Origin: Candidatus Aminicenantes bacterium
GTDB lineage: Bacteria; Acidobacteriota; Aminicenantia; Aminicenantales; Saccharicenantaceae
DNA length: 36,865 bases
Reading direction: 5' to 3'
Assembly (NCBI GenBank): GCA_037441785.1
Contig: JBBIRN010000001.1
Span: 1 to 36,865 of the forward strand
Within the stretch, counting starts at the first letter, position 1. Each line of letters opens with the position of its first letter. A program made the position numbers and the translations under genes. Positions 4,719-32,518 of the stretch are shown here, one piece after another. The notes beneath the pieces were generated by a model. The model was given only the letters and a program-made list of their open reading frames with translations, searched no databases and was not told the DNA's origin.

Positions 4719-4760
4719 AAAAATGGGAACACTTTCTATATTTCCTATTTTTTTTTCTGG
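4719..4760 (+). repeat. Solo 'unit A' arm of the GGGGAC repeat family (no core attached)
   Basis: AAAAATGGGAACACTTTCTATATTTCCTATTTTTTTTTCTGG starts at the base after TAA 4716-4718. It aligns with the first ~40 nt of the elements at 14792, 22226 and 26771. Confidence 0.6.
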
Positions 4761-7981: not shown

Positions 7982-8045
7982 GGTAGCCGCTGCGGGTCCC
8001 GGGCTCTCTCACAGGTTCAGCTTTTAAAAATTTTAAACGCCCGGC

Positions 8046-13134: not shown

Positions 13135-13258
13135 GAAAGTAAGAAAAAAGAAGGAAGAAGTAAGAAGAAAAGAGAAGAAGGTAAACGACCTTAACCAGGG
13201 AACAGCCAAAATGACGGCCAAAAATTTTTACTAATAAGCAGTGGAAAGGAGGAGGGAA

Positions 13259-14791: not shown

Positions 14792-15396
14792 AAAATGGGG
14801 ACACCTTCTATATTTCCATTTTTTCTGTGACCCAGCTGGTAGAAAATGGGGACAGGGAAAATGGCGACAGAAAAGGGGACACAGAAAATGGGGATAGAAA
14901 ATGGGGACTTAATCTATATTTCCGATTTTCTTTGGCTTCCGCGGTGGGAAATAACTCACCCCGGGGAAATTAGAGACTCTCTAAATTTGTAGGGAAACTG
15001 GGCACGGTCGGGGAATAGGCAGGCCATAAAAGTGGCCATGCTTTAAAAGTTGTTATTTTCTACCACGACCATTTCCCCTTATTCACCAGTTTTCTTGTTC
15101 CATTATTTTAATAACGCAAATGTAAACAAAATTGTTGGACACGATAAGTTCCTCTCTGTTTTTGCCGCGGTAGATGGATGAAACATAAATTGATTTTCCT
15201 GCGGTTTTGACCTTGTTTAAGGTTCAGGTAGGTTCGGTGGGTGCCTTTCGGGTTAGTCCATCAGGTTATTCCCGAGCAGGTAAGTCATTTGCTCTTCACC
15301 CGTCTTTAAAGCCAGAAATTGGGGTTTAAGTATTATGTCCCCCATTTCCCTAATGTCTCCCGTTTCCCTAATGTCCCCCCGTTTCTCCCGTTTTCC
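14792..15396 (+). repeat. GGGGAC-arm repeat element, copy 1 (605 bp, non-coding)
   Basis: Left arm has 6 GAAAATGGGGAC-type units (14791-14908). The spacer follows, then the 299-bp core at 15036-15334. Right arm has 3-4 inverted units (15337-15396, 18-nt period). It aligns end to end with 22226-22771 and 26771-27292. Confidence 0.9.
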
Positions 15397-15441
15397 TGAT
15401 TGAAGGAAGCAGGAGAAAAATATAAACTTAGATTATAAAAA

Positions 15442-16695
15442 ATGCGTAGAAGAGAAGTCTGGGTCTTTTTTTTGCTGCCATATTTTCTGGTCCTGGGCCT
15501 CTTTACCCTTATGTCCCACCTTAACCGGCAGGCCATCCAGCATGGCGTGGAAAGCCTGGCCAAAGAACAGCTTCAGGCCACGGCTGCAATTTTAAAAGCT
15601 AATATCAAAGAATACATAGAAGCCAAAGGTTCACCTGAAGGTGCGCTGGATAAATTCACTCAACTGGAAGAGGTCTACTTTATGGCCCTGCTGGATGAAA
15701 ATGAGGAGATTATTGACTGGCACTCTCGCTTTGAGGGTTATCTGCCTTTTTCCAGGCGCAACCGCCCGGCCTCAGAATTCTGGGTGACTGATTCTCCGGT
15801 GGGTTCCGTTTTCAACCATTATTCTTCTTTTAAGACCAAGGACGGCCAGGTTTACCGTCTTTATTTAGGCTACTCACTTCACGGGCTGGACCAGCTCCTG
15901 GCTCGCTCGCAAAAGAATTTCTACCTGATCCTGACCATAATGGCCCTGGCCGGTTTGATAATTTTTGCCGGCATTTACCGGTTACACCAGAGTTTTCAGC
16001 GAGCCACAGAGGAAGCCATAAGGCAGGCGGAAGAAAAGGAAAGGTTTAAGGAAATTTCCGGCTTCACGGCTGGCGTGGCGCACGAAATCAAGAACCCGCT
16101 CAACAGCCTGGTGCTGCTCTTTGAACTGCTGGAGAAAAAGGCTCCGCCGGAATTTTCCAGACTGGTCAGCCAGGGAAAAGCTGAAGCCCATAAGGCGGCG
16201 GCGGTGGTGGACCGTTTTTCTGAAATTATCAAACCCCTTAACCTGAAAAAAGAGCGGATAATCCTGAACGAAGTCCTGCAGGAAGAGATCAGCAGCCTGC
16301 GGGGAATGGCCGAAGCCCGTCAGGTGGAAATTGAGCTCAGAGCACCAAAAAAAATTAGCCTGGAGGCTGACCGTCTGTTGCTCGGTCGGGCGGTGCACAA
16401 CCTGATTAAAAATGCCCTGGAAGTATCTTCGCCGGGCCAGAAAGTACTGGTCCAGGCCGAACTGGTAAAGAAAATGGCCGTCTGCTCGGTGATTGACCAG
16501 GGACCGGGCCTGGCACAGGAAGGGGCTGAAAAAATTTTTGAGCCGTTCGTCACCAGCAAGGAAAGTGGCCTGGGTGTGGGCCTGTACCTAGTCCGGAAAA
16601 TTGTAGAAGCCCATGGCGGAAGAGTCTATTTCAGAAAAGGATCCGAGGGCGGTTCCATCTTTACCATGGAAATTCCTGGAGGTCAGGATGTCTGA
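15442..16695 (+). CDS. Sensor histidine kinase (HisKA + HATPase_c), membrane-anchored
   Basis: Two TM segments are present. H-box GVAHEIKNPLNSL, N-box HNLIKNALE, and G-boxes DQGPGL and GLGVGL. Confidence 0.85.
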   Translation: MRRREVWVFFLLPYFLVLGLFTLMSHLNRQAIQHGVESLAKEQLQATAAILKANIKEYIEAKGSPEGALDKFTQLEEVYFMALLDENEEIIDWHSRFEGYLPFSRRNRPASEFWVTDSPVGSVFNHYSSFKTKDGQVYRLYLGYSLHGLDQLLARSQKNFYLILTIMALAGLIIFAGIYRLHQSFQRATEEAIRQAEEKERFKEISGFTAGVAHEIKNPLNSLVLLFELLEKKAPPEFSRLVSQGKAEAHKAAAVVDRFSEIIKPLNLKKERIILNEVLQEEISSLRGMAEARQVEIELRAPKKISLEADRLLLGRAVHNLIKNALEVSSPGQKVLVQAELVKKMAVCSVIDQGPGLAQEGAEKIFEPFVTSKESGLGVGLYLVRKIVEAHGGRVYFRKGSEGGSIFTMEIPGGQDV

Positions 16696-18082
16696 AGCAA
16701 AAGAGAAAAAAGCAAGCCGGGGATTGGTCCTGGTGGTGGAAGATGATGAGATGCAGAGGGTTTTGATCTCGGAAAACCTCAGGCAGGAAGGCTACCAGGT
16801 GGTAGAGGCGAGTAATATTCAGGAGGCTCTTCAGCTTGTCCATCAACATCCGGTAGAAATTGCCGTGGTTGATTACAAACTGGGTTCGGAATCGGGACTG
16901 GAGCTGGTTAAAGAGCTAAGAAAAATAAACCCGCTGATTACTCCGGTCATGGTCACCGCTTTTGCCAGCATTGAAACGGCTGTGGAAGCCATCAAACAGG
17001 GAGCCTATGATTATGTGGTAAAGCCCATAGATTTTCAGCGCTTTCTTCTTGTTCTGGAGAGAGCCCGGGAAAGATTTCGCCTGCAGCGGGAAGTCCACGA
17101 GCTGCGAAACCGCCTGGAAGAGAAATTCAGCTTCAAGAATTTCATTTTTGCTTCCAGAGCCATGGAACAGGTAGTCAGGCTGATGAGCAAGGCTGCCCGG
17201 AGCGAAGCGACTGTTTTAATAACCGGCGAGACCGGAACCGGGAAAGACCTTATTGCTCGGCTGATTCACTACTCTTCAGAGCGCAGCCAGGGGCCTTTTC
17301 TGGCTGTTAACCTGCCTTCCATCCCGGAAACTCTGGTAGAGAGTGAATTGTTCGGTGCTGAAAAAGGGGCTTACACTGATGCCCGGGAAAGGAAAATCGG
17401 TAAGTTTGAAGCAGCTGATGGCGGAACGCTTTTCCTGGATGAGATTGGAGACTTGCCCCTTTCCCTTCAGGTTAAACTTTTGCGTTTTTTACAAGACCGG
17501 GAATTCTATCGTCTGGGCTCCACCAAACCCCTTAAGGCTGAGGTCAGAATTATTGCCGCCACCAATAAGAATCTGGAAAAACTGGTTAGCGAGGAAAAAT
17601 TTCGGGCTGACCTTTATTACCGCCTGAATGTCATCAGAATTGATGTTCCACCCCTGCGTGAAAGAAAAGAAGACATCCCGCTGCTTGTCGACCATTTTAT
17701 AAGGGAATACAGCCGGCGGGAGAAAAAGAATATCAAGGGGATTTCGGCTGAAGCTATGGAGGCCTTGATAAAACATGATTTTCCGGGAAACGTCCGGGAA
17801 TTGGAGAACGCTATAGAAAGGGCCGTTGTTTTTGCTGAAGGCGAGTATATCACCCGGGCTGACCTGCCGGTCTTCTTGGAAATCAGGTCAGAAAAAGAGC
17901 TGGCAGAGGCCGCAGAAGCAGATTTTTCCCGGCCTCTGCCTGATAAAGTGCGCGAGCTGGAAATCAGGGAAATAAAACGGGCCCTAGAAAAAAGCGGCGG
18001 GGTTAAAAGCCGGGCAGCCCGGCTCTTGGGCATCACTGAGCGCATGCTGTCGTACAAAATGAAGGTCTACGGACTGTATTAG
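16688..18082 (+). CDS. NtrC-family sigma54-dependent response regulator (REC + AAA+ + Fis-type HTH)
   Basis: ATG 16688 overlaps the kinase stop (ATGTCTGA). REC domain LVLVVEDDE. Walker A GETGTGKD. The sigma54-contact loop reads ESELFGAEKGAYTDA, a variant of GAFTGA. C-terminal HTH SRAARLLGITERMLSYKMKVYGL. Confidence 0.9.
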   Translation: MSEAKEKKASRGLVLVVEDDEMQRVLISENLRQEGYQVVEASNIQEALQLVHQHPVEIAVVDYKLGSESGLELVKELRKINPLITPVMVTAFASIETAVEAIKQGAYDYVVKPIDFQRFLLVLERARERFRLQREVHELRNRLEEKFSFKNFIFASRAMEQVVRLMSKAARSEATVLITGETGTGKDLIARLIHYSSERSQGPFLAVNLPSIPETLVESELFGAEKGAYTDARERKIGKFEAADGGTLFLDEIGDLPLSLQVKLLRFLQDREFYRLGSTKPLKAEVRIIAATNKNLEKLVSEEKFRADLYYRLNVIRIDVPPLRERKEDIPLLVDHFIREYSRREKKNIKGISAEAMEALIKHDFPGNVRELENAIERAVVFAEGEYITRADLPVFLEIRSEKELAEAAEADFSRPLPDKVRELEIREIKRALEKSGGVKSRAARLLGITERMLSYKMKVYGLY

Positions 18083-18604
18083 CTTGACAAAGGCCATAAA
18101 AAAGAAAAACTATTAAAAAATGAAATAAATTATGACCGCAATAAATCATACACTGACGGCAGCTGTTGTCTGTACTGTGTTTAGGTTCGCTCTTTCAGGC
18201 AGGCGATGGCCGTGCCTGCGGATATGGCCGAGTTCAGAGACAGCGGCCTCGCTCTTCAAATTTCCTTTCTGGTCTGATGAAGCTGGAGCTACGGCCGAAA
18301 AGTATGAAGGGTCAACCAGATGAGATGGTTTCTTGACCCAAGACCTAAAAACTACCACAACGCTGATGGCAAGATGGCCGACGAGCTAAAACGCGCATGT
18401 ATCAAGAAATATGAGACTGAACCCATCAGTGCCGCGGAGGCAGCATTCTCTGAGCTATTGTTCTGTAAACGAGACAACTCAGATTTCCGGCTACAATTAT
18501 TTAACTTTGGCCAAAACTTTTGTGCTGATGGGCCAAGCCTTTGCTGCAGCCAATCTCAAACTTCTGGAGTCCAGGACTCACCATTTTTATAACGAGGCTA
18601 TCTT

Positions 18605-21600
18605 ATGAAAATATTGTTAGGTCCAAACACCAATACCCGCAGGTCTTTTGTAAAAATATTCTTCACGACGCTGGTGATTTTGTTGTTGATGGGACCGTTG
18701 AGCCCGGCCTGGGGCTCTAAGCCGGTGAAGCTCGCAAAATCTCTACCTCTGCCAGGAGAAGTGTTTGAAATTGATGGCCACACGGCATTTGTAATTCTGC
18801 CGGCCAGGGAAAACCTTTATCCCAACCGTCCAATCCCGTGGGTGTGGTATGCGCCTACTTTACCCGATCTACCTGACCAGAACGAACGCTGGATGTTTGA
18901 GCGCTTTCTGGCCGCCGGGATGGCTATCGCCGGTATTGATGTCGGTGAATCGTATGGCAGTCCTCAGGGGCGCGCTGGCTTTTCCGCTCTCTATCGTGAA
19001 CTGGTGGAGAAGCGCGGTTTCAGCCGTAAGCCTTGCCTGCTGGCGCGCAGTCGTGGCGGTCTTATGCTTTATAACTGGGCGGTGGAGCACCCCGATTCAG
19101 TTTCCTGTATTGCCGGCATTTATCCTGTCTGCAACCTGCGGAGCTATCCGGGTCTTGATAAAGCTTGCGGCGCCTATGGTATGAGCGCTGAGCAGCTTGG
19201 CCAGGAACTGGCCAAACACAACCCCGTTGACCGTCTTGCGCCGTTAGCCAGAGCCAGGGTTCCCATATTCCACATCCACGGCGATAAAGACGACCTGGTG
19301 CCACTGTCCGATAACTCCGCCTTGCTCGCCAGTCGCTACCGCGAGCTCGGCGGTTCGATGCGCTTACGGATTGTTCCCGGTCAGGGACATAATCTCTGGG
19401 AGGGATTTTTCCAATGCCAGGAACTTGTTGAGTTCGTCATAGAACATGGCATCCCACCTGCTGAGCGCGAACCCAATGCGGCCTTGTTTAAAGAACCACC
19501 TCTGGAAGCCAGGCCCGGCGCCTTCTGGTCGTGGATGAACGGCTATGTTGACTTAGACAGGTTAACCTACGAACTAGAGGAGATGAAGGCAAAAGGAATG
19601 TCCGGCGCAGAGATCTGGGATATCGGCGTCTACCGCCCGAATCCGGAAGAACCGATTCCGGCTGGTTCGGCTTTCCTCAGCCCTGAATCACTAAAAGCCA
19701 TTAATCACGCCATCAATGTGGCAGACCGTCTGGGACTACACCTGGGAATGGTCGCTTCCAGCAGCTGGAATGCAGGCGGCAGCTGGGTTCAGCCTCGCCA
19801 GGCAATGAAAGGGCTTTACGTGAGTGAAATAAAGGTCAGCGGGCCAACCAGGTTGTCGCGGGTGTTGCCTTTCCCGGCCTGCAGCGCGCCAAAGGGTGCC
19901 AACGGCTTGCCACTTTACTACAAGGAAATTGCCGTGCTGGCTTTTCCGTACTCGCCGGATAATACCATCCGGGATGTCTCCGCGGTCATTAACCTCAGTG
20001 ACAGGATGGACCACAACGGACGGCTCACCTGGGACGTCCCGCCGGGGTCGTGGGTAATCGCCCGTTTCATTACGAGCAACACTGGCGAGAAACTTATGGT
20101 GCCAAGCCCGAACTCAAACGGACTGCTCATTGATCATCTTGATGGCCAGGCCATCAGAACCCATTTTCAGTATATTATTGACCAGATTCTTAAAGTGCGA
20201 CCCAGTCTGGATGCCTTGCGCTACCTGGAACTTGACAGTGTGGAAGTTGATAATCAAACGGACTGGACCGATTCCTTTGTGGAGGAATTCCGCAAGAGGC
20301 GTGGCTATGACCCGACTCCTTATCTGCCTGTTCTGAAAGGTAAGAAATTTGCTGACCCGCAGATTACCGCTCGTTTTCAGCACGATTATAACAAGACGGT
20401 CAGCGATTTGTGGATTGAAGGTCATTACCGCAGTGGTGCTGAGTTTCTGAACCGGTATGGGATGAAACTGGTGGCCGAGGCGGGTCACGGAGGTTACCCG
20501 CGCGCCGAACCACTGCGCGCCTGCGGCGTGGTGGATGTCCCGCGCGGCGAATTCTGGAACGGTGCGCAGTTCTGGATAGTGAAAGAAGCAGCCTCCGCGG
20601 CGCACATCTACGGCCGACAGATTGTTGATGCGGAGTCATTTACCGGCTGGCGGCACTGGCAGGACGGACCTCTGGAGTACAAGCGCCTGGCCGATACCGC
20701 GTTTTGCGATGGGTTGAATCGCCTCACCTTTCACACTTTTGCCCATACACCACCGCAGGGCGGCGTACCCGGACATATGTATCACGCCGGTGAACATTTC
20801 AACGTCAACACCACCTGGTGGCCAAAATCTGGCCCGATGCTTTACTACTTCTCCCGCTGCTGCTATCTGCTGCAGTTGGGGTTGCCTGTGGCTGATGTTT
20901 GCTTCTATTACGGTGATGATGCGCCAAACTTGGTGGCCACCCGCCGTATCGGACCTGATTCCAAGCGGCTGGATTTCGGTCCCACCTGCGCCCATTGTGG
21001 GAGACCCAACCCGGCCCCGGTTGATGTGCTCGGAGCTGGATACGACTATGACGTTGTCAATTCTGATGTGATTGAAAATATGATGGAATTCAGGGACGGT
21101 CGCCTGGTCCTGCCCCACGGTGTAAGTTACTCGGTCATTGTTCTACCGGAACGCTCAGACATTCCTCTTTCTGTGCTGAAGAAACTGGAAAAACTTGTTC
21201 TGGAAGGCGCTATACTGCTCGGTCCCAAGCCTGTGCGCGATGTTACCCTGGCCGATTATCCCCGCTGTGACCAACAGGTTCAGGCTATTGCAGATAGAAT
21301 GTGGGGACCAGGCCAGGTTGATCAGACGGCCGATCGCTCCTACGGCAAAGGCAGGGTAATTGCCGACCGCAAACGTCTCCGGGAAATTCTTCAGCAGTTA
21401 GGCATAGGACCAGATTTCACCTACAGCAGTCCGGATAATCAGGCAGACCTTGATTACATCCACAGACGCACCCCTAACGCCGACATCTACTTTGTCAGCA
21501 ACACAAAGATGGAAGAAGCTGTGGCTGATTGTACCTTCCGCGTCTCCGGACGTCTGCCGCAGTTCTGGTATCCGGACACCGGTAAAATAGAACCCTGCAA

Positions 21601-22225
21601 TCGTTACACCTATGTTTCGGGAGGAACGAAGCTGAGATTGCGGTTGCCTCCGGCCGGCTCGGTTTTCGTCGTCTTTTCCGGGGTAGCGCCTGAAGTCGTC
21701 CCGGCCCCGGCGCCGGAACCAACCGTCAGGACCGTAGCCACACTCGAATTAACAGGTCCCTGGGAAGTTCGTTTCCCACCCGACCTGGGGGCGCCACCCT
21801 CGTACGTTTTTGAAAAACTTGTTTCCTGGACTGCAGTTCCCGATGAGGGAATCAAATATTTTTCGGGAACCGCGACCTATCTGAAAGAATTTGAGGTCCC
21901 GGCCTCTATGGTGGGTGATGGTCAGCGCCTGGAATTGGACCTGGGACAGGTTCGCAACGTCGCCGAAGCCACCTTGAACGGAAAGCCGCTCGGGATTGCC
22001 TGGAAACCTCCCTACAGCTACGATGTCACCGGTGTGGTCCGGGTCGGCAAAAACGAGTTAAAAGTTGAAATTGTAAACCTCTGGGCCAACCGGCTGGTCG
22101 GCGACGCTAAACTTCCGAGGGAAAAAAGGATAACGCGCCTTACCCAAAAAGTGAAAATCAACGGCCCGCTTGAATCCGGGCTTCTCGGACCCGTGCAATT
22201 ACGTGTGTTCAAAGAGACAAAATAA
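18605..22225 (+). CDS. Fusion protein: N-terminal alpha/beta-hydrolase (esterase) + GH106-like glycoside hydrolase with C-terminal GH2-type sugar-binding domain
   Basis: Signal peptide present. Esterase part has RSRGG...HIHGDKDDLVP...GQGHNLW. The GH106-type opening PGAFWSWMNGYVDLDRLTYELEEMKAKGMSG follows. The C-terminus FSGTATYLKEFEVP...LDLGQVRNVAEATLNGKPLG...NELKVEIVNLWANRLVGD is typical of this family. Confidence 0.8.
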   Translation: MKILLGPNTNTRRSFVKIFFTTLVILLLMGPLSPAWGSKPVKLAKSLPLPGEVFEIDGHTAFVILPARENLYPNRPIPWVWYAPTLPDLPDQNERWMFERFLAAGMAIAGIDVGESYGSPQGRAGFSALYRELVEKRGFSRKPCLLARSRGGLMLYNWAVEHPDSVSCIAGIYPVCNLRSYPGLDKACGAYGMSAEQLGQELAKHNPVDRLAPLARARVPIFHIHGDKDDLVPLSDNSALLASRYRELGGSMRLRIVPGQGHNLWEGFFQCQELVEFVIEHGIPPAEREPNAALFKEPPLEARPGAFWSWMNGYVDLDRLTYELEEMKAKGMSGAEIWDIGVYRPNPEEPIPAGSAFLSPESLKAINHAINVADRLGLHLGMVASSSWNAGGSWVQPRQAMKGLYVSEIKVSGPTRLSRVLPFPACSAPKGANGLPLYYKEIAVLAFPYSPDNTIRDVSAVINLSDRMDHNGRLTWDVPPGSWVIARFITSNTGEKLMVPSPNSNGLLIDHLDGQAIRTHFQYIIDQILKVRPSLDALRYLELDSVEVDNQTDWTDSFVEEFRKRRGYDPTPYLPVLKGKKFADPQITARFQHDYNKTVSDLWIEGHYRSGAEFLNRYGMKLVAEAGHGGYPRAEPLRACGVVDVPRGEFWNGAQFWIVKEAASAAHIYGRQIVDAESFTGWRHWQDGPLEYKRLADTAFCDGLNRLTFHTFAHTPPQGGVPGHMYHAGEHFNVNTTWWPKSGPMLYYFSRCCYLLQLGLPVADVCFYYGDDAPNLVATRRIGPDSKRLDFGPTCAHCGRPNPAPVDVLGAGYDYDVVNSDVIENMMEFRDGRLVLPHGVSYSVIVLPERSDIPLSVLKKLEKLVLEGAILLGPKPVRDVTLADYPRCDQQVQAIADRMWGPGQVDQTADRSYGKGRVIADRKRLREILQQLGIGPDFTYSSPDNQADLDYIHRRTPNADIYFVSNTKMEEAVADCTFRVSGRLPQFWYPDTGKIEPCNRYTYVSGGTKLRLRLPPAGSVFVVFSGVAPEVVPAPAPEPTVRTVATLELTGPWEVRFPPDLGAPPSYVFEKLVSWTAVPDEGIKYFSGTATYLKEFEVPASMVGDGQRLELDLGQVRNVAEATLNGKPLGIAWKPPYSYDVTGVVRVGKNELKVEIVNLWANRLVGDAKLPREKRITRLTQKVKINGPLESGLLGPVQLRVFKETK

Positions 22226-22771
22226 GAAAATGGGGACACCATGTATATTTCCATTTTTTCTGTGACCCATCTGGTAGAAAATGGGGACAGAAATGGGGGC
22301 AGGGAAAATGGCGAGAGAAAAGGGGACACCATCTATATTTCCGATTTTCTTTGGCTTCTGCGGTGAATATAACTCCCCCCGGGGAAATTAGGGACTCTCT
22401 AAATTTGTAGAGAAAAATACTGGGCACGGTCGGAAATTGGGCATAACCTAAAAGCGACCATGCTTTAAAAGTTGTTATTCTCTACTACGACCATTTCCCC
22501 TTATTCACCAGTTTTCTTGTTCCATTATTTTAATAACGCAAATGTAAACAAAATTGTTGGACACGATAAGTTCCTCTCTGTTTTTGCCGCGGTAGATGGA
22601 TGAAACATAAATTGATTTTCCTGCGGTTTTGACCTTGTTTAAGGTTCAGGTAGGTTCGGTGGGTGCCTTTCGGGTTAGTCCATCAGGTTATTCCCGAGCA
22701 GGTAAGTCATTTGCTCTTTGCCCGTCTTTAAATCCAGAAATTGGGGTTTGAGTATTGCGTCCCCCGTTTTC
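22226..22771 (+). repeat. GGGGAC-arm repeat element, copy 2 (546 bp), filling a convergent intergenic region
   Basis: Left arm has 5 units. The core at 22458-22756 differs from copy 3 at a single position. There is one inverted unit at the right end. The element is bounded by TAA 22223-22225 (+) and by the TAA on the complement of 22772-22774. Confidence 0.9.
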
Positions 22772-24052
22772 TTAGTCGTAGAGTTGCCATTCGCCGGAAT
22801 GGTTTTCAGGAAGTTTTGATTTCTCTTCCCATACCTTGAGCAAGTAGTCTTTGCTATCCTCAAAAATCTGCGCCTGCCGCTCCACCTCCTGTTCGGCCTG
22901 CTCTGAACTCAGGTCCCAGGTGCTGCGGATAAAATCAGCTATCCGGGCGTAATAAAGCGGTGTTACTAACTCGATAATCTTGAACCGGTTCCTGGGCCAG
23001 GCATGGAAGGTAGCAGCCAGCTCGTACAGGATTTTTACCCAGGCCTCAACCGGAAGTCTGAAGTCCTGGACCGTTAGCCTGGAGGCAGCTTCCACGGCGG
23101 CATAGGCTTCCTCGGAAAACAATTCTTTCCACAGTGGCGAGAATTGCTTGAAACCCACTTTAAAACGGTAAATCAAGTCGGGCAGGGCCACTTCCACTGG
23201 TTCTGGTTCCCTGGCCTCTATCTGGCCCAAGATTTCCACCGGCTGGCTCCCTTTCACCATTTTCCAGTACGGTTCATACTGCTCCATCAACGTAAACAAT
23301 ATCCACAGCACCTGCCGGAACATCGGTCCCAGTTGCCTGGAAGGATCCTTGACGTCGTGAATTTTAACCCCCAGGTTGGCCTGGCAGATTTTGAAGCCTT
23401 GGATAATAGCATTGGTAGTCATCCAGATATCAATGCCAAAGCGAGCCACGTCTGTGTCCCAGACCTCCTGGCTTATGTAAAACTCAGCTACCTTCCGATT
23501 GAAAGCAAAATCCCCGCCGATAGGCTGGCGAATTCTTTTGCCGTAAAGAGCTCGGGTCAGGTTATAAACAATATTATTAGTAATGGTGCCATCGTACTTG
23601 TGCCGCTGATAAATCGGTGCTACGAAGTCATAGCCCTTTGCCAGGACAGGGTTTAGCAGGTTAAAGACCCAGTCCGAAGTAATGCTGCGCAAATCGGCAT
23701 CAACCACGGCACAGGCCTGAACTTTGAGTTTGCAGGCCGCTTCAAAAACCGATCGCAGGGCCGAGCCTTTTCCGCCAATACCACGGTAAATGGAAATCAA
23801 TTTTTCCTGCCAGGGTTTTATCTGGAATTCCTTGGCCATTTCTCGAGTGTCGTCTGTTGACCCCCCGTCAGCGATGAAGATAAGATTCCGCTTGTTCCGG
23901 TAATATTTATCCAGCCCGTGGGTAACCATCTGGATGACGTGGGCGATTGTCTTTTCATTGTTGAAGCAGGGAATGCCGACGATTATATCAGCCTGGCCGA
24001 TTTCTTCCAGACGTTTCAGAGTATAGGCCCTTAATGAAGTTGAATAACTCAC
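22772..24052 (-). CDS. GT-A fold (GT2-like) glycosyltransferase, possibly a glucosylglycerate / mannosylglucosylglycerate-type synthase
   Basis: GIPCFNNEKTI...ADGGSTDDT...VVDADL (DxD) motifs. GTG start with no clear RBS. The functional guess rests only on the neighbouring GpgS-like and MPGP-like genes. Confidence 0.7.
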   Translation of the reverse strand: MSYSTSLRAYTLKRLEEIGQADIIVGIPCFNNEKTIAHVIQMVTHGLDKYYRNKRNLIFIADGGSTDDTREMAKEFQIKPWQEKLISIYRGIGGKGSALRSVFEAACKLKVQACAVVDADLRSITSDWVFNLLNPVLAKGYDFVAPIYQRHKYDGTITNNIVYNLTRALYGKRIRQPIGGDFAFNRKVAEFYISQEVWDTDVARFGIDIWMTTNAIIQGFKICQANLGVKIHDVKDPSRQLGPMFRQVLWILFTLMEQYEPYWKMVKGSQPVEILGQIEAREPEPVEVALPDLIYRFKVGFKQFSPLWKELFSEEAYAAVEAASRLTVQDFRLPVEAWVKILYELAATFHAWPRNRFKIIELVTPLYYARIADFIRSTWDLSSEQAEQEVERQAQIFEDSKDYLLKVWEEKSKLPENHSGEWQLYD

Positions 24053-24297
24053 ATTTTGATTATCACGGTTTTTCTTCCGGATGTCAAAATTTCATTTTAG
24101 TTAGGAGAAACGGCAGTATTTTTTGGTAAATTATCAAAAGATATTTGACCGTCGGGATAGAAAAGAAAATACTTTTTAACTTGAAGCCTGGGGAAAAACC
24201 AGAAGAGTGACCTGTTATAAGGTTGGCCCGAAGAAAAATTCAAGAGGCCGTGGGTATTGAATAACAATTACTTACTATTAAGCACAAACTTAAAAAA

Positions 24298-24312
24298 GCA
24301 ACCGACGAACCA
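24298..24312 (-). promoter_or_regulatory. Candidate sigma54 -24/-12 promoter (TGGTTCGTCGGTTGC on the minus strand)
   Basis: GG and TTGC have the correct spacing relative to TGGCACG-N4-TTGCW, about 245 nt upstream of the minus-strand GT start. The -24 element deviates from consensus (TTC instead of CAC). No UAS was identified. Confidence 0.25.
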
Positions 24313-24473
24313 AGGTCCCTAAATAGTGTTACGAAATTAAATAAAAGTAACATCAAAACAAAAAGATGTTGACAGCCATGAGTTTTTTAGTTTATGGTAA
24401 AAATGTAAACAATAAAAGTCAGCCAGCACCGATATAAAATATCTTTTATAAATAAATTAAAGAAGAGGTTTTC

Positions 24474-25538
24474 TTGTCTTTTCAATTGGTTGTCTTCACT
24501 GACCTTGATGGCACCTTGCTTGACCACCAAACATATAGTTTTCAGGCTGCCCGACCCATGATCAATAAATTGCTAAGGCTGGGTATTCCCATAGTCATCA
24601 ACACCAGCAAGACCAGGGCTGAGACCGAAATCCTGTCTAGAAGACTCAAGCTTAATCATCCATTTATTGTAGAAAATGGTGGTGCAGTTTTTATACCTGA
24701 AGGATGCTTCGAGCCGGCTTTTTTCAGAAGACTAAACATTCGAACGCTGAGAAAAGACCACTATTTGGTTATTCAGCTGGGGACTCCCTATCCGAAGTTG
24801 AGAAAATATTTGGAGGTTATAAAAAAAAGAACCAAGGCGAAGCTGGTGGGATTTGGTGATTTAACCGCAAAACAGATAGTTTATTTTACTGGTCTGAAAA
24901 GAAGCGAAGCGAATCTGGCCCGCCGTAGAGAATTTGATGAACCTTTTTTGATAGATGGTGACCTGGAGCTTCAATTTTATAAGGCGAATAGAGAAAAAAC
25001 AAGAAAAGGGAAAAAACAGCGGTCTGCCTTTAACCACGAGAAGAAAGTTAAGTATTTTTCTTTACAAAGTGAAAAACCAGTCCTGACCAGAGATTTTAAA
25101 AAGACCTTGCCGGAAGTCAAAAAGGAAGCGAAACGATACAGACTTAAGATTACTGAGGGTGGGAGGTTTTACCATCTGACCGGCCATAACGACAAAGGCC
25201 GAGCAGTGCGCTTGCTCCGAAAACTATATCAGCTGAAGTTTGGCAAAATCGTTACCATTGGGCTGGGGGACTCAACCAATGACTGGCCGTTGTTTAAGGC
25301 GGTTGATTATCCAGTGATGGTAGCCAGGCCGGATGAGTCTCATTCGAAATTACCACCTGGACTTAAAAATACTTACAAAACCAAGAAACCCGGCCCATGG
25401 GGCTGGGTTGAGGCTTTAGAATATTTTCTCTCGCGTTTCCAGATTAATAAAAGCCGGACTAAAAATTTGGCCGCCGAAACTTTGTCTAAAAGAGCTCTGA
25501 ATAAAAAACCAGAACGAGAGAAAATAAAAAATTTATAA
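24474..25538 (+). CDS. HAD-IIB phosphatase of the mannosyl-/glucosyl-3-phosphoglycerate phosphatase (MpgP/YedP) type, with Lys-rich insertion and tail
   Basis: TTG start 5 nt after AGAAGAGG. HAD motifs FTDLDGTLLD, NTSKT and GDSTNDWPLF. About 80 extra residues rich in K/R (REKTRKGKKQRS...KKEAKRYRLK; C-terminal KKPEREKIKNL). Confidence 0.8.
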   Translation: MSFQLVVFTDLDGTLLDHQTYSFQAARPMINKLLRLGIPIVINTSKTRAETEILSRRLKLNHPFIVENGGAVFIPEGCFEPAFFRRLNIRTLRKDHYLVIQLGTPYPKLRKYLEVIKKRTKAKLVGFGDLTAKQIVYFTGLKRSEANLARRREFDEPFLIDGDLELQFYKANREKTRKGKKQRSAFNHEKKVKYFSLQSEKPVLTRDFKKTLPEVKKEAKRYRLKITEGGRFYHLTGHNDKGRAVRLLRKLYQLKFGKIVTIGLGDSTNDWPLFKAVDYPVMVARPDESHSKLPPGLKNTYKTKKPGPWGWVEALEYFLSRFQINKSRTKNLAAETLSKRALNKKPEREKIKNL

Positions 25539-25558
25539 AAGTATAAAAGGAGGCTGCC

Positions 25559-26770
25559 ATGTCTGATGTTCACCAAACAGGTGTGGTGCCCACTTTCCAT
25601 CGCCTGGGAGAGTTGAAGATTGAGCGCATGGAACAGGAGCTCAGGGAATTTAATCGCCATCGGCCGATTGCTCTGGTTTTGCCGGTAACTCCGGCTGAAC
25701 TTGACTCGCCGGCTCTAAAAGTAATCCTCCATCATCTTCAAGACATAGATTATTTAAATGAAATAGTGGTGGTGCTTGGCCGAACTGATAAGGAAGAAGA
25801 TTTTCACAAGACAAAAAAGCTATTTTCTGTTTTACCGCAACGGCATCGGGTTATCTGGGCCTCGGGACCTCATCTGGGCGAGCTTTATAAAGTCCTGGAA
25901 GAGGCCGACCTCTCACCCGGTGGCGATGGCAAAGGAAGGTCAGCCTGGGTGGCTTATGGCTATATTCTGGCCCGGGAAGAAAGCCGGGTCATCGCCCTGC
26001 ATGACTGCGATATCGTGAATTACTCCCGGGAATTGCTGGCCCGACTCTGTTACCCGGTGGCTTCGCCCCATATTGATTATGCTTTCTGCAAAGGTTATTA
26101 CGCCAGGGTTACGGATAGACTGCATGGCCGGGTGACGCGTCTTTTTGTGTTTCCGCTCGTCAGAAGCCTTATCAGGATTTATGGCCACCTGCCTTTTCTG
26201 ACCTACCTGGACAGTTTCCGCTATCCGCTGGCTGGTGAATTTTCCATGGTGGCTGAGCTCGCCCGGATAAACAGAATACCTTCAGACTGGGGACTTGAAA
26301 TTGAGACTCTGGCCGAGGTTTACCGGAATTTTTCCCTCAGGCGAATCTGCCAGGCTGAAATCATGGAGACTTACGAGCACAAACATCAGCCTCTCTCAGC
26401 CGAAGATCCCAGCACCGGTCTGATGAAAATGTCCATAGATATTGCCAGGGCCGTCTTCAGAAACCTGGCCATTGAGGGAATTGTTCTGGCCGAAAGCACT
26501 TTGCGGACCCTGATTGTCAATTACCAGCGCACAGCCAAGGACTACGTCAAGCGCTTTCAAGATGAATCAGAAATAAACGGACTGGTATTTGATTATCACA
26601 AAGAAAGCCAGATGACAGAAGCTTTTACCCGGGCCCTGCAAATTGCCGGCCAGAAGTTTCTGGAAGACCCGCTCTATTCACCGCACATCCCCAACTGGAC
26701 CAGGGTGGTAGCTGCCATCCCCGATTTCCTGGACCAGCTTAGCTCTACTGTAGAAGAAATGAACCGCTAA
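25559..26770 (+). CDS. Glucosyl-3-phosphoglycerate synthase-like glycosyltransferase (GT81-type)
   Basis: AGGAGG RBS. The blocks GDGKGRSAW, HDCDI (DxD), HGRVTRL, YPLAGEF and GLEIETL match the conserved blocks I recall for GpgS enzymes. Confidence 0.7.
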   Translation: MSDVHQTGVVPTFHRLGELKIERMEQELREFNRHRPIALVLPVTPAELDSPALKVILHHLQDIDYLNEIVVVLGRTDKEEDFHKTKKLFSVLPQRHRVIWASGPHLGELYKVLEEADLSPGGDGKGRSAWVAYGYILAREESRVIALHDCDIVNYSRELLARLCYPVASPHIDYAFCKGYYARVTDRLHGRVTRLFVFPLVRSLIRIYGHLPFLTYLDSFRYPLAGEFSMVAELARINRIPSDWGLEIETLAEVYRNFSLRRICQAEIMETYEHKHQPLSAEDPSTGLMKMSIDIARAVFRNLAIEGIVLAESTLRTLIVNYQRTAKDYVKRFQDESEINGLVFDYHKESQMTEAFTRALQIAGQKFLEDPLYSPHIPNWTRVVAAIPDFLDQLSSTVEEMNR

Positions 26771-27292
26771 AAAAATGGGGACGCCATCTATATTTCCATT
26801 TTTTCTGTGACCCATCTTGGGGAAAATGGGGGCGGGAAAATGGGGACATAATCTATATTTCCGATTTTCTTTTGCTTCCGCGGTGAAAATTAACTCACCC
26901 CGGGGAAATTAGTAACTCTCTAAATTTGTAGGGAGAAAATTGGGCATGGTCGGAAAATAGGTAGGCCATAAAAGTGGCCATGCTTTAAAAGTTGTTATTT
27001 TCTACTACGACCATTTCCCCTTATTCACCAGTTTTCTTGTTCCATTATTTTAATAACGCAAATGTAAACAAAATTGTTGGACACGATAAGTTCCTCTCTG
27101 TTTTTGCCGCGGTAGATGGATGAAACATAAATTGATTTTCCTGCGGTTTTGACCTTGTTTAAGGTTCAGGTAGGTTCGGTGGGTGCCTTTCGGGTTAGTC
27201 CATCAGGTTATTCCCGAGCAGGTAAGTCATTTGCTCTTTGCCCGTCTTTAAATCCAGAAATTGGGGTTTGAGTATTATGTCCCCCACTTTTT
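26771..27292 (+). repeat. GGGGAC-arm repeat element, copy 3 (522 bp)
   Basis: Left arm has 3 units, the core is at 26978-27276, and one inverted unit ATGTCCCCCACTTTTT lies at 27277-27292. The element starts at the base after TAA 26768-26770. Confidence 0.9.
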
Positions 27293-27351
27293 AACCAAAA
27301 ACTAACATTTGACTCTCATTTTTTTAACATCTTCCCGGTAATTTATAGCCG

Positions 27352-28545
27352 ATGTATATAGCAATATTAATACTACTGGGTTTATCGGGCTTTTATCTCA
27401 GTTTGCTGACGGTCATGACCCTGGTTTACCGGCCGAAGCGGGAAAAACCTGGTCTGTCCAACGTTTTTCTGAAACAAAGTGATTATCCCTGGGTCAGCAT
27501 CTTAAAGCCGGTAAAAGGTGTTGATGATGGCCTGGAAGCCAACCTGGAATCTTTCTATCACCTTGATTATCCTGTTTATGAGATTCTGTTCGCGGTTGAT
27601 AGCTGGCAGGATAGAGAGGTCGAAATAATAAGAAGGGTGGTCGACCGACATCCGAAGATTTATACCAGAATTCTGGCCACGGGACATCACCCCACGGAAA
27701 ACCCTAAAATTCACAAATTGAGCTTTCTGGAGAACGAAAGCCGAGGCCGCCTGCTGTGGGTGACAGATGCTAATGTCAGAGTGGAACCGGATACTCTGAG
27801 ACGCCTGGTGGCTGAGTATAAAACAAGCGAGGCCAAGTTTATTTTTTCTCAAATTATGGGCGCTGGTAGTAATACTTTTGCCAGTCTGATGGAAAACACC
27901 AGCCTCAATTTTTTTACTTCGGGCAACGTAATTACTCTTTGGAAAATCTTTTCCAAGCCGGTAGTGGTCGGGAAGTCGATGTTGATTGACCGAGCGGCGC
28001 TTAAAACTCTTGGCGGTTTTAAGTACTTCAAGGATTATTTGGCCGAAGACTATCTGATTGGCAAATCCTTTATGGAAAGTGGGTTCAGAGTCAGCACTGA
28101 CTATACCTGGGTGACCAACATCAACCAACGAGTCACCATCAAGAGCTTTTACAAGAGAATGGCCAGGTGGGCCAGGCTGCGCTATCAATTGCATCGGCCT
28201 GCCTATTTATCTGAAATATTACTTAACCCCATATTTCTGGCGCTGGCCAGCCTGCCCCTGCTCGGGGCCAGTTTCTGGTGGCTCATTCCGCTGGCTGCCG
28301 GCTTTAAGATTTTACTGGAATATCTGAATTTCGTCGTGGTTAATGCTCAGGACCGTGGCCGTTGGCAAAATCATCTTTTATTTCCACTGACGGTAGTTAC
28401 CAAAGATTTAATACTTCTGGCGGTTTATCTGACTCCGTTTTTCAGTTCTACCGTAGACTGGCGCGGCGGCCGGATTAAAGTGGGCAAGAATTCATTAATC
28501 TGCCATAAGCCGAGTTTTGAACCATTAATTTATGAAGAAGCCTGA
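27352..28545 (+). CDS. GT21-type glycosyltransferase (ceramide glucosyltransferase / HpnI-like)
   Basis: N-terminal TM segment. SILKPVKGVDDGLEANLESFYHLDYPVYEILF is the typical Glyco_transf_21 opening. Also VTDANV and an RMARW (QxxRW-like) motif, with C-terminal TM helices. Confidence 0.75.
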   Translation: MYIAILILLGLSGFYLSLLTVMTLVYRPKREKPGLSNVFLKQSDYPWVSILKPVKGVDDGLEANLESFYHLDYPVYEILFAVDSWQDREVEIIRRVVDRHPKIYTRILATGHHPTENPKIHKLSFLENESRGRLLWVTDANVRVEPDTLRRLVAEYKTSEAKFIFSQIMGAGSNTFASLMENTSLNFFTSGNVITLWKIFSKPVVVGKSMLIDRAALKTLGGFKYFKDYLAEDYLIGKSFMESGFRVSTDYTWVTNINQRVTIKSFYKRMARWARLRYQLHRPAYLSEILLNPIFLALASLPLLGASFWWLIPLAAGFKILLEYLNFVVVNAQDRGRWQNHLLFPLTVVTKDLILLAVYLTPFFSSTVDWRGGRIKVGKNSLICHKPSFEPLIYEEA

Positions 28546-29881
28546 TTTAGCCCACATCATAGCCGTTCATATGGGGTTGGGTCATCTAAGGGCAGCTTAT
28601 CCTCTCCGAAATTTTTCCAGTAAAAGCATAATTATCTGGGGTTCTCGGAATTATGCTGCCCCCGGTGAGAAAAAATACTGGCGGTTAATAAGGAAAACTT
28701 ACTATTTCCTCTCAAGAGTCGGGTCCTTGCCGATTTTTGGCCGATTGGCTCTCAAGGTAATCATGGCCATCCAAAGGATTCCTCCTTTCTACCCGAAGAA
28801 GGATTTAAGCCGGCCCAACCTGGCGGTAAGGTTTCTTAAAATTCTGATAAAACGGGCCAGGCTGTGCAGGACTCTGCCTGATTATTTAGCTTCTGACAAC
28901 CTTCCTGTGATCAACACCTTCTATGCTACAGCCATAGCCCTGGAAAGCCTGAAAGAAAAAATACCCAGCCACAGAGAAAATTTTCTGATTATTTGTGATG
29001 CCGATATCAACCGGGTCTGGGTTCCAGAAGATCCAGGCGCCAGCAGCATCAAGTACCTGGTTCCCTGTACCCAGGTCAGAAACAGGCTGCTAACCTATGG
29101 GGTCAGGCCCGAACATATTTTTCTGACCGGTTTTCCATTGCCAGTAGAAAATGTGGGAACAGAAACCGGGCTGGAAGTTTTAAAGATAGACCTGCTGGCC
29201 AGGCTTTTACGCCTGGACCCATCCGGCAAATTCTTTGCCTATCACCGCTATTCGGTCTGCCACTGGCTGGGTCGCAAAACCATCCCGGAGCACAGAGAAA
29301 ATCATTTTACCGTGATGTTTGCTATCGGCGGGGCCGGAGCCCAGACCGAGCTGGCCAGGCGTATCTTGAAGAGTCTTGGTCCTTTAATCCGGACGGGCCG
29401 GGTCCGGCTGCTTCTGTCCTGTGGGGTTCAGCGCCGGGTTCTGGAAAAGACCCTTAAATTCATCAACCAACAGGGGCTCTGGGACGAAATCGGTCGCGAT
29501 ATCCATCTGATTTTCAGCGATAATGTTTTTGAGTATTTTGATTTGTTCAACCGCTGGCTCAGACAGACTGATGTCCTCTGGACCAAGCCCAGCGAACTTT
29601 CTTTTTATTGCGGCCTCGGCTTGCCAATTATTATGGCTGATCCTATAGGGCCACAGGAAGAACTCAATAAACGCTGGTTGATGGAAATCCATGCCGGGGT
29701 GGTTCCGCCTGGACCGCCGGAGTACTGTCAGGAATGGCTATTAGACCTCAGAGAGAACGGCCGCCTCGCCGAAGCCGCCTGGGACGGTTTTCTAAAGGCG
29801 CGCAAGCTCGGCACCTTTAAAATAAAAAAATTGCTTGAAACCGGGGAATATGCAGAAGAAATCTCGCCTTTAAAGCAGTAA
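28532..29881 (+). CDS. Putative GT-B glycosyltransferase (MGDG-synthase/GT28-like), function unknown
   Basis: Overlaps the GT21 gene by 14 nt. N-terminal HMGLGHLRAA resembles the G-x-GH motif of MGDG-synthase-like enzymes, and a second glycine loop FAIGGAGAQ is present. The assignment is weak. Confidence 0.5.
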   Translation: MKKPDLAHIIAVHMGLGHLRAAYPLRNFSSKSIIIWGSRNYAAPGEKKYWRLIRKTYYFLSRVGSLPIFGRLALKVIMAIQRIPPFYPKKDLSRPNLAVRFLKILIKRARLCRTLPDYLASDNLPVINTFYATAIALESLKEKIPSHRENFLIICDADINRVWVPEDPGASSIKYLVPCTQVRNRLLTYGVRPEHIFLTGFPLPVENVGTETGLEVLKIDLLARLLRLDPSGKFFAYHRYSVCHWLGRKTIPEHRENHFTVMFAIGGAGAQTELARRILKSLGPLIRTGRVRLLLSCGVQRRVLEKTLKFINQQGLWDEIGRDIHLIFSDNVFEYFDLFNRWLRQTDVLWTKPSELSFYCGLGLPIIMADPIGPQEELNKRWLMEIHAGVVPPGPPEYCQEWLLDLRENGRLAEAAWDGFLKARKLGTFKIKKLLETGEYAEEISPLKQ

Positions 29882-29959
29882 AGCACAGAGCCTTAAAATC
29901 TAAAATTTTCTGGCAACCATTTTGTCTTTTCGTCTGTCTTTATTTACGAGGTTTTAAAA

Positions 29960-31353: not shown

Positions 31354-31457
31354 GCACGCTTAAGCAACTATGAGGAAGACAGAAATCACAAAATAAAAAA
31401 AATAAAAACAAGAAAAAATCAAAAGAAATGCGAAAAAAACATGAAAGGAGAAAAATC

Positions 31458-32426: not shown

Positions 32427-32487
32427 TGGCCTAAGCTAAAACATGCCTGGCGCTGATTAAAGAATTAATACCAGAATAAGCCAAACA

Positions 32488-32518
32488 GGGGCGGGAAAAT
32501 TCCCGCCCCTTTTTTTTT
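32488..32518 (+). terminator. Rho-independent terminator
   Basis: GGGGCGGGAAAATTCCCGCCCC forms a perfect GC-rich hairpin, followed by nine T residues. Confidence 0.85.

Follow-up and report, generated by a model that had tools for sequence, protein, structure and literature searches.

REP-like units, probably of a RAYT-like Y1 transposase, abut stop codons in Aminicenantes

Why should a repeat begin exactly where genes end? The question is raised by a 36,865-nucleotide stretch of DNA from a Candidatus Aminicenantes bacterium (contig JBBIRN010000001.1, positions 1 to 36,865; we refer to the whole stretch as the window), in which a 35-nt repeat, unit A, starts right after a stop codon at four genes, once on its own and three times as the left end of an element of about 0.55 kb. 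The original prediction, made from the letters alone, offered three explanations: the element targets TAA followed by a run of A's, its termini supply the stop codons of genes that it clipped, or it is a selected module of the 3' untranslated region (3'-UTR). We confirmed that abutting a stop codon is a property of the repeat family, is specific to the head of the unit, and goes far beyond chance. In our view (probability roughly 0.75), the units are a REP-like (TIRtron-type) family in Aminicenantes that belongs to a RAYT-like Y1 transposase, and the longer elements are mosaics of them. (REP stands for repetitive extragenic palindrome and RAYT for REP-associated tyrosine transposase.)

The four TAA codons that had been placed before unit A (4716-4718, 14789-14791, 22223-22225, and 26768-26770) are correct, and each is the end of an open reading frame (ORF): 3360-4718, 13241-14791, 18605-22225, and 25559-26770, respectively. 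At all four sites, unit A starts 0-1 nt past the TAA of the co-oriented gene. The right end of the second 0.55-kb copy, an inverted and diverged unit (unit B), likewise meets the TAA of its co-oriented gene, as had been claimed: the GT2 gene lies on the minus strand at 22772-24052, and its TAA is the complement of 22772-22774. The strings that had been quoted for this copy, TAAGAAAATGGGGAC on the plus strand and TAAGAAAACGGGGGAC on the minus strand, are what we read there. Similarity does stop short of the coding 3' ends, as the three 0.55-kb copies align from the TAA onward only. The right end of the third copy had been described in the same terms, and a TAA-like string is present on the minus strand (about 27290-27294), but no gene stops there; the gene after it (27352-28545) is on the plus strand.

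The unit is sharply bounded and has the form (A)AAAATGGGGACACAATCTATATTTCC(T)ATTTTT. In a position matrix built from 127 units, positions -1 to +34 are near-invariant, including six unconstrained "loop" positions, and there is close to zero information outside of them: no position from -20 to -2 exceeds 0.2 bit, and the only preference is for A/T at -1 and -2. We found neither a target duplication nor a conserved target in the flanks of the 127 units. In the window, a 26-nt version of the pattern has seven matches (0.04 were expected), and 5 of the 26 gene ends carry a unit. We also scanned one genome per species with the degenerate 26-nt pattern, which gave 54 loci (we refer to individual loci by L numbers). 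Seven of these are single chance matches, and the rest are from metagenome-assembled genomes (MAGs) of Candidatus Aminicenantes, Saccharicenans, or Acidobacteriota. The units are present in at least 14 Aminicenantes or Saccharicenans MAGs, where they lie scattered on both strands; among 123 distinct copies, just nine are inside ORF calls. The solo unit A of the window is also found at the orthologous site in MAG-76 (JACIYK01; L049).

The commonest form of the repeat is the solo 35-nt unit, as seen from metagenome depth. When Logan contigs from four metagenome runs (subsurface, hot spring, and sediment) were mapped on the second 0.55-kb copy, the depth over the 40 nt of unit A was 13-36 times, and that over the core of the element 3-11 times, as high as over the gene in the flank. 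Contigs that enter unit A show many different flanks, and the consensus of their loose ends finishes in TAA in all four runs.

Some of the unit-bearing MAGs are labelled as "uncultured Eubacteriales" (GCA_964422165.1; L006, L010, L011, L026, L029, L037, L046, and L059) or as "Bacillota" (JAKPEE01; L033 and L056). These labels or bins look wrong, as the MAGs in question have synteny or repeats in common with the other genomes. The "Eubacteriales" MAG with contigs CAYQZX carries the transposase that is described below (L011) and shows synteny to the window, with a nucleotide identity of 68-78%.

To survey how far each unit lies from the nearest stop, we used simple greedy ORFs of at least 90 amino acids and considered a unit to abut a stop if a co-oriented stop codon lies 1-6 nt before ATGGGG (we call this distance d). 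Across the Aminicenantes loci, 35 of the 123 distinct units abut the stop of a co-oriented ORF, with 10, 8, 9, 5, 2, and 1 units at d = 1, 2, 3, 4, 5, and 6. Under the null, 1.0% would abut a stop if any intergenic position were allowed, and 1.9% if placement were limited to intergenic runs of at least four A's (binomial p = 9e-40 and p = 1.4e-30). With orthologous duplicates (about five) set aside, about 30 of the 35 cases are independent. The original prediction that placement at stop codons is unlikely by chance is thus borne out. That link proved to be non-random and clade-wide; what the prediction had not identified was the element itself, which is a mosaic of REP-like units from a RAYT/TIRYT-type system.

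The enrichment does not depend on ORF calls. If we count open frames of at least 90 codons that end within 12 nt of a unit, then 41 long frames end at the GGGGAC head and two end at the tail, and this asymmetry holds even though the tail also starts with an A-run on its own strand. Elsewhere, orientation is random: among the non-abutting units in spacers between unidirectional genes, 18 are sense and 17 are antisense. In convergent spacers, 21 of 24 units are nearer to the co-oriented gene. These counts (41 versus 2, and random elsewhere) make the family one of the cleanest quantitative cases of a head-specific association between REPs and stops, and they constrain models of how RAYTs place or maintain REPs.

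The abutted stops are TAA in 28 cases, TGA in seven, and TAG in none, versus 153, 99, and 34 among all 286 stops. In 18 of the 35 abutting units (those with d = 1 or 2), and in 20 of the 41 in the ORF-free count, the unit's own A's complete the TAA. Read in the sense direction, the consensus of unit A is free of stop codons in every frame. By inspection, the units with d = 1 do not have a consistent AA, GA, or AG past the T-run, that is, no sign of a split stop that was displaced to the 3' side.

A simple sequence target, the first of the three proposed explanations, is insufficient to explain the bias toward stops, because there is no conserved flank and no fixed offset and because a plain A-run as the target predicts just 1.9%. 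The cause of the abutment could be a bias in insertion, renewal of units in place, or selection on the transcript.

We also noticed a second and smaller class of placements, in which the head of the unit lies against the ribosome-binding site (RBS) of a divergent gene, 16-26 nt from the start codon (for example, ...CATTTCTTCCTCCTG followed directly by AAAATGGGG). These are at L007 328, L015 3025, L016 1550, L020 5281, L028 5610, and L041 3355; about six are independent, and about two were expected.

What links the units to a transposase? In L011, an ORF of 219 amino acids (1814-2473) lies between units. It matches the Pfam family Y1_Tnp (IS200-like) at 51.7 bits (the cut-off is 23). Its sole NCBIfam match is the REP-associated tyrosine transposase (NF047646, E = 1.8e-16), and its sole match in the PDB is the TnpA_REP protein of E. 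coli (4ER8, E = 1.4e-3), with the HUH and ...Y..NPV motifs aligned. Homologues of 205-245 amino acids are widespread in assemblies of Aminicenantes and Saccharicenans, and also occur in Acidobacteriota; they are named only as "transposase." Inverted cognate units lie on both sides of the transposase gene in five loci, each from a different assembly:

L011: plus-strand units at 1540 and 2482; minus-strand units at 98 and 2891
L051: plus-strand units at 4796 and 4839 and a minus-strand unit at 6406, around a minus-strand gene
L066: plus-strand units at 1909 and 2690; minus-strand units at 2895 and 3001
L069: its own GGTGAC variant on both sides of the gene
L070: a further variant, plus a tandem array of half-units that resembles the mosaics in the window

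In L066, the first plus-strand unit is flush with the TAA of the upstream gene, and the last minus-strand unit overlaps the TAA of a convergent peptidase gene. Half-unit arrays lie beside the transposase genes in both L066 and L070.

The hallmark of REP/RAYT systems is a gene that is flanked by inverted copies of a dispersed repeat, with variants of the two tracking each other (Nunvar et al. 2010, PMC2817692). RAYT-like genes known as TIRYT occur in species without GTAG REPs; they are flanked by terminal inverted repeats (TIRs), many of which contain GGGGWSAS, and these repeats are partly self-complementary and are found singly, as dimers, or in clusters (Di Nocera, De Gregorio & Rocco 2013, BMC Genomics 14:522, PMC3733652). 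The same study describes a well-defined group of TIRYT genes that is specific to Acidobacteria. Because inverted cognate units flank a Y1 gene in five loci and because the GGGGACAC core matches GGGGWSAS, we consider this to be a system of the REP/RAYT type. It has what defines a TIRtron: a RAYT-like Y1 gene, inverted GGGGWSAS repeats, and no GTAG REPs. As with REPs in general, the unit is a short imperfect palindrome that is present in high copy and is mostly extragenic.

The likeness to TIRtrons extends to partial self-complementarity, and to dispersal as singles, dimers, and clusters, and a distinct group of the published transposases comes from Acidobacteria, the phylum that holds Aminicenantes. 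However, the published cases are from cultured Acidobacteria, Stenotrophomonas, and others, and Aminicenantes are not listed. The A-run head, the overlap with TAA, the half-unit arrays, and the 0.55-kb mosaics with their 0.4-kb core are not described there. The comparison with TIRtrons is by motif only.

REPtrons, such as E. coli REP/BIME with TnpA_REP (4ER8), share the short, high-copy, extragenic imperfect palindromes and the gene between two inverted units. In both systems, variants of the unit track variants of the transposase, units lie near the 3' ends of ORFs, and their termini can donate a stop (TAG for GTAG REPs). The clusters and mosaics of Aminicenantes also resemble BIMEs and REPINs, but the spacers in those are tens of bases long, compared to 0.4 kb in the mosaics. 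Other differences are that the unit in Aminicenantes does not have a GTAG or GTGG head, that its weak palindrome is not kept by covariation, and that its transposase is about 220 amino acids long (the 4ER8 chain has 165) and is below the NCBIfam cut-off for RAYT equivalogs.

The IS200/IS605 elements and the non-autonomous PATEs also share the HUH Y1 domain, subterminal hairpins, and the lack of target duplication, and a single defined end that inserts beside a short target would yield the asymmetry between head and tail that we observed. In contrast to these elements, there is no fixed target of 4-5 nt on the 5' side of the Aminicenantes head; the A-run itself could be a target in the style of IS200/IS605, yet it does not predict the bias toward stops. 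Also, the transposase loci of Aminicenantes look single and fixed, rather than like a multi-copy insertion sequence, and the left and right ends are one and the same unit in inverted orientation, not two distinct direct hairpins.

Hugging stop codons is a documented habit of REPs. Di Nocera et al. (PMC3733652) reported that REPs are mostly between unidirectional or convergent genes, that the upstream ORF typically has its 3' end within less than 20 bp of them, and that GTAG REPs' termini frequently donate a TAG stop. What is new here is the lineage and the sequence family, in which TAA comes from the A-run rather than TAG from GTAG.

We propose that units A and B are DNA substrates of a RAYT/TIRYT-type HUH Y1 (IS200-like) transposase. 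This enzyme would recognize the weakly palindromic 35-nt unit with its conserved head, AAAA-YGGGGACAC, and units would spread or be renewed as single-stranded DNA, without target duplication. They would be placed or retained head-first at the 3' ends of genes. If an in-frame T, a TA, or a complete stop codon directly precedes the AAAA of the head, then a TAA forms immediately or the native stop is kept. A unit that inserts elsewhere in the tail of a gene would add at least 12 residues, because unit A does not have a stop in any sense frame, and would probably be purged. The expected outcome is units that lie flush with stops at variable offsets of 1-6 nt.

Several observations weigh against this proposal. 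The score of the L011 transposase (60.3 bits) is below the equivalog cut-off of 80, so strict membership in RAYT/REP is not reached, and the GTAG or GTGG head of classical REPs is absent: with its AAAA-(T/C)GGGGAC head, the unit is not a GTAG-tagged REP. The window does not contain a transposase gene, and none is shown for this exact genome either. We did not find a clean pair of empty and occupied sites at near-identical sequence, and mobility is inferred. The different species-specific variants at orthologous gene ends, described below, could mean renewal in situ rather than fresh insertion. Selection against ORF extension accounts for the avoidance of gene tails, but not for the 28-33% of units that lie within 6 nt of a stop instead of anywhere in the spacer. 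Finally, the non-abutting units show no orientation bias, which does not fit a simple strand-specific rule of insertion.

A more specific version is that transposition itself makes the junction of head and stop: the Y1 transposase would insert or renew units at single-stranded DNA of the sense strand, at the point where the release of the ribosome uncouples translation from transcription. We consider this to be unlikely. If it were true, the unit would amount to a portable "TAA plus 3'-end" module, with the 0.55-kb mosaics as exchange points for gene cassettes in Aminicenantes, and this would be a transposable element that reads a landmark of translation and not a DNA sequence.

If the REP-like reading is correct, an abundant and previously unannotated repeat from an uncultured phylum-level lineage (Aminicenantes/OP8) can be placed in the REP/RAYT-TIRtron class. 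The consensus can be used for masking or annotating Aminicenantes genomes. Short-read assemblies break at the 0.55-kb mosaics, and perhaps at the high-copy unit A as well: the Logan contigs stop inside the element or at its edge.

In three pairs of loci (L034/L069, L036/L034, and L024/L056), each species has its own variant of the unit at the same orthologous gene end. In L060, there are degenerate units past both of two convergent stops where the window has canonical units flush with the stop. Different variants at orthologous ends could reflect either repeated hits on gene ends or renewal in place.

Among the alternatives, the one that survives best is that the unit is a selected 3'-UTR module: the hairpin would do its work in the mRNA, and the transposase would only supply the raw material. 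Such a module could protect the 3' end, terminate or attenuate transcription, or act as a brake on terminating ribosomes, as in some E. coli REPs. The orientation of the units agrees with this, since those that abut stops are in the sense orientation only (35 versus 1, or 41 versus 2) and orientation is random elsewhere. Furthermore, stop-abutting units are kept at orthologous sites although the downstream spacer has diverged (L010/L031 and L007/L015/L016), each of the convergent genes in L060 has its own co-oriented degenerate unit, and most REPs are thought to be transcribed (PMC3733652).

The sense RNA of the unit is predicted to form an A-U-rich stem of 10-12 bp, with two G-C and two G-U pairs and a loop of 11-12 nt. 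Its folding energy is -8.3 kcal/mol at 37 C (z = -2.9), compared to -5.3 kcal/mol for the antisense RNA, which folds less well because two of the stem pairs are G-U. Better folding of the sense strand is also as expected for a 3'-UTR module. However, two G-C pairs and an 11-12-nt loop make a weak hairpin for an organism from a hot spring or the subsurface. In the common AAACAG variant of the head, the TATTTTT tail is kept and two stem pairs are broken without compensation, and in the position matrix the loop is conserved as strongly as the stem. The unit does have a U-tract, but it is not an intrinsic terminator by the usual signs: it has just two G-C pairs, it shows no covariation, and a terminator scan missed it. 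The organism does use ordinary terminators, given the G+C-rich one at 32487-32510 (see below). Also, just 5 of the 26 gene ends in the window have a unit.

Because the head variant is uncompensated, because the loop is conserved like the stem, and because the genome has ordinary terminators, the evidence favours recognition by a sequence-specific protein, most simply the transposase, over a structural role of the RNA. So for the third explanation in the original prediction, the restriction to the sense orientation at stops stands, but the hairpin is weak (-8 kcal/mol) and has no compensatory changes. We consider a selected 3'-UTR module to be possible but improbable. A search for RNA-seq data did not find any run that contains the locus.

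Two further observations concern terminators. The one at 32487-32510 in the window is bidirectional (AGGGGCGGGAAAATTCCCGCCCCT followed by T8) and lies 60 nt past the gene at 31428-32426. Also, the L034 orthologue of the unit at L036 4571 (TAACAGGGGACACCCTACGGTGTCCCTTTTTT) combines a GGGGACAC head with a perfect GTGTCCC arm and a T-run; it resembles a terminator and is flush with the stop. This hints at a link between the repeat family and terminator hairpins.

A second alternative is that the element clipped genes and that its terminus supplied their stops. There is a published precedent, the GTAG REPs that donate TAG, and the A-run completes the TAA in about half of the abutting units (the 18 with d = 1-2). 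However, the genes that meet copies in the window stop at an ancestral position. All of the twelve closest orthologues of GT2 (77-96% identity) have 426 amino acids and end in ...W(Q/H)xYD*, no matter what comes next: a degenerate unit at a distance of 10 nt in L060, another repeat family in L059, or, also at 10 nt, a convergent gene in L063. The DUF1302 protein ends in ...VSF* in the window (with TAA), in L060 (with TGA, and with a degenerate unit 9 nt past the stop), and in L059 (with TAG). The 403-amino-acid protein encoded at 25559-26770 ends in ...NR* in the window (TAA) and in L059 (TGA), and its orthologue in L060 also uses TGA. For both of these genes, no unit lies flush with the stop in the relatives. 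GH106 keeps the conserved ...GPVQLR, its conserved domain is intact, and its tail of six residues is within the range of 0-20 residues among orthologues. L010 and L034 share the position of their stop as well.

The ends do differ by 1-6 codons in three pairs of orthologues. L024 ends in ...ESL*, while the frame of L056 continues for four codons into half-units (...EALKRGT*); the gene in L017 is six codons shorter at its end than its orthologue in the window; and L034 and L069 differ by one codon. The last codons of a gene are thus sometimes remodelled by units. As for the second explanation in the original prediction, we found no truncation of the window's genes, and as a general cause clipping is refuted by the stop positions of the orthologues; what is left of it is the completion of TAA and the three differing pairs elsewhere. 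We consider it to be quite unlikely as an account of the pattern.

The other repeat family in L059 (CAYQZX010000001.1) consists of short repeats or hairpins, GGAACAGGAG.../AAAGGCAGACACTCCTGCCCTTT, at 7280-7400 and 7870-8060, at the same gene ends. This genome carries GGGGACAC units elsewhere, too.

The window has three of the 0.55-kb copies (0.52-0.60 kb), all in the same orientation: 14792 to about 15397, 22226-22771, and 26771 to about 27292. Each consists, in order, of unit A, a spacer, an array of half-units, a second direct unit (unit A'), a non-homologous core of about 0.4 kb, and the inverted and diverged unit B (minus strand: GAAAACGGGGGACGCAATACTCAAACCCCAATTTC). The half-units are about 13 nt and are GAAAATGGGGACA-like; there are about five in copy 1, four in copy 2, and one or two in copy 3. 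The features are as follows:

4719..4754, plus strand: solo unit A (REP-like), directly past the TAA at 4716-4718 of the DUF5050/Big_2 gene (3360-4718)
14792..14826, plus strand: unit A of copy 1, flush with the TAA at 14789-14791 of the DUF1302 gene (13241-14791)
14842..14897, plus strand: half-unit array of copy 1 (about 13 nt each, GAAAATGGGGACA-like; the number differs between copies)
14898..14932, plus strand: unit A' of copy 1, the second direct unit, a ...TTTCCGATTTTC variant
14933..15314, no strand: core of copy 1, about 0.4 kb, with block D1 at 14995-15294
15315..15350, minus strand: unit B of copy 1, inverted (inverted repeat I1); the minus strand reads GGAAATGGGGGACATAATACTTAAACCCCAATTTC
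15351..15397, minus strand: extra inverted half-units of copy 1, TAGGGAAACGGGAGACAT-like, past unit B
22223..22225, plus strand: TAA of the GH106-family gene (18605-22225), one base ahead of unit A of copy 2
22227..22261, plus strand: unit A of copy 2 (Logan depth 13-36 times that of the flank over 22228-22268)
22276..22316, plus strand: half-unit array of copy 2
22317..22351, plus strand: unit A' of copy 2
22352..22736, no strand: core of copy 2, with two small plus-strand ORFs (22472-22603 and 22611/22629-22751)
22737..22771, minus strand: unit B of copy 2; its head (minus strand: GAAAACGGGGGAC) directly meets the stop of GT2
22772..22774, minus strand: TAA of the GT2 (glucosylglycerate-synthase-like) gene (22772-24052)
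26772..26806, plus strand: unit A of copy 3, past the TAA at 26768-26770 of the 403-amino-acid gene (25559-26770)
26837..26871, plus strand: unit A' of copy 3, with one half-unit ahead of it (26822-26836)
26872..27256, no strand: core of copy 3
27257..27292, minus strand: unit B of copy 3; no gene ends here

Solo copies of unit B were found in L042, L029, and L010. The half-units are just the GGGGAC head (12-14 nt), and their number in tandem varies between copies that are otherwise alike. Besides the arrays in the window (14842-14897, 22276-22316, and 26822-26836), there are arrays in L066 (about 1897-1912), in L070 (about 1890-1935), and in L056 (AAAAAGGGGGACGT three times). They look like products of slippage or abortive products of the transposase.

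The distal part of the core, about 270 nt, is identical across the three copies in the window (block D1, at 14995-15294, is 96-98% alike), and its left 190 nt are only about 85% alike. A 21-mer scan for the core had no matches in genome contigs; in metagenome contigs, it found two real loci and one chance match (L003). Comparing the core to 120 RAYT homologues (blastx) and to RAYT loci (blastn), we found no similarity beyond the units, and we rejected the idea that it is a decayed transposase. No ORF of over 72 amino acids lies inside the element.

We also rejected the element as a structured RNA. The folds of the whole element are not distinctive on either strand (z of about -2.2 to -2.3), and RNAalifold on five core-bearing copies gave one compensatory pair and an unfavourable covariation term. 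Rfam had no matches at its gathering thresholds in the whole window and only chance-level matches over 22200-22800 (at most 20 bits, with cut-offs of at least 50). Scans for tRNAs and tmRNAs found nothing, and a scan of the element for sigma-70 promoters found none.

Two small plus-strand ORFs in the core (43 and 46 codons; 22472-22603 and 22611-22751) have an intact frame in each of the five copies of the core that are known (copies 1-3, L002, and L004). They have 11 synonymous and 12 non-synonymous variable codons, a slight excess of synonymous change, versus almost only non-synonymous ones in the other frames. No RBS precedes them, they are not called as genes anywhere, and a search against 1.84 billion representatives gave only multi-stretch matches to long repetitive proteins, none of them a credible homologue. 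The pattern of codon changes is only suggestive of a protein-coding core.

A mosaic copy lies at every junction where gene blocks of the window are missing from relatives, as seen from synteny. In the window, the stretch between DUF1302 and GT2 (14793-22772) holds copy 1, a histidine kinase gene, GH106 with two other genes, and copy 2; in L060-L062, the two genes are directly convergent and are 108 nt apart. L060 is also without 26770-29906 (copy 3, GT21, and DUF6938). L002 and L004 are without 22772-26767 (GT2, a HAD phosphatase, and the 403-amino-acid gene), and a single hybrid element joins GH106 to GT21; in L004, this element is a hybrid of copy 1-like and copy 3-like sequences. In L063, GT2 is convergent with GH116. 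Mosaics of units thus mark the junctions of gain and loss of gene blocks in a neighbourhood of polysaccharide metabolism and compatible solutes.

These junctions raise the alternative of an integron- or Xer-like cassette site, at which a site-specific recombinase moves blocks between units. Like attC sites, the units begin at or overlap the stop of the upstream ORF and are co-oriented with it, they are orientation-specific imperfect palindromes, and the presence or absence of gene blocks (3-8 kb) coincides exactly with the 0.55-kb copies. However, no integrase or Xer gene is associated with the units, and the enzyme that is associated with them is of another class, a Y1 HUH transposase. In contrast to attC sites, the units are scattered on both strands instead of being arrayed, and their consensus has no R''/R' core sites. 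Also, the boundaries of the blocks are inside direct repeats of 0.5 kb (96-98% alike over block D1), and ordinary homologous recombination explains them. No dedicated recombinase is needed if near-identical direct repeats recombine with each other or if circles that carry one copy integrate and excise. We consider a cassette site to be very unlikely; at the least, the mosaics act as portable homology for recombination.

The last alternative, a chance A-rich context past TAA or a miniature inverted-repeat transposable element of the DDE type that duplicates TA or TAA, is hardly credible: AAA is the commonest triplet after stops (41 of 286) and both ends of the mosaics are inverted repeats that start with TAA and an A-run, but most of the AAA triplets are the units themselves, solo units are the commonest form, no DDE transposase with such ends was seen, and the reading is refuted by the flanks, which have no direct target duplication and no conserved information, and by an enrichment of p ~1e-30 even against the A-run null.

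The strain-variable block at 22772-26770 in the window comprises GT2 (a glucosylglycerate synthase according to some sources), a HAD/S6PP-like phosphatase, and the 403-amino-acid gene. It may be a cassette for the synthesis of a compatible solute.

L004 is also without a further 2.1 kb of the window, which is not bounded by repeats (window 30135-32264 versus L004 3991-3999). This gap runs from inside an ECF sigma-factor gene (29960-30640) to inside a DUF4097 gene (31428-32426).

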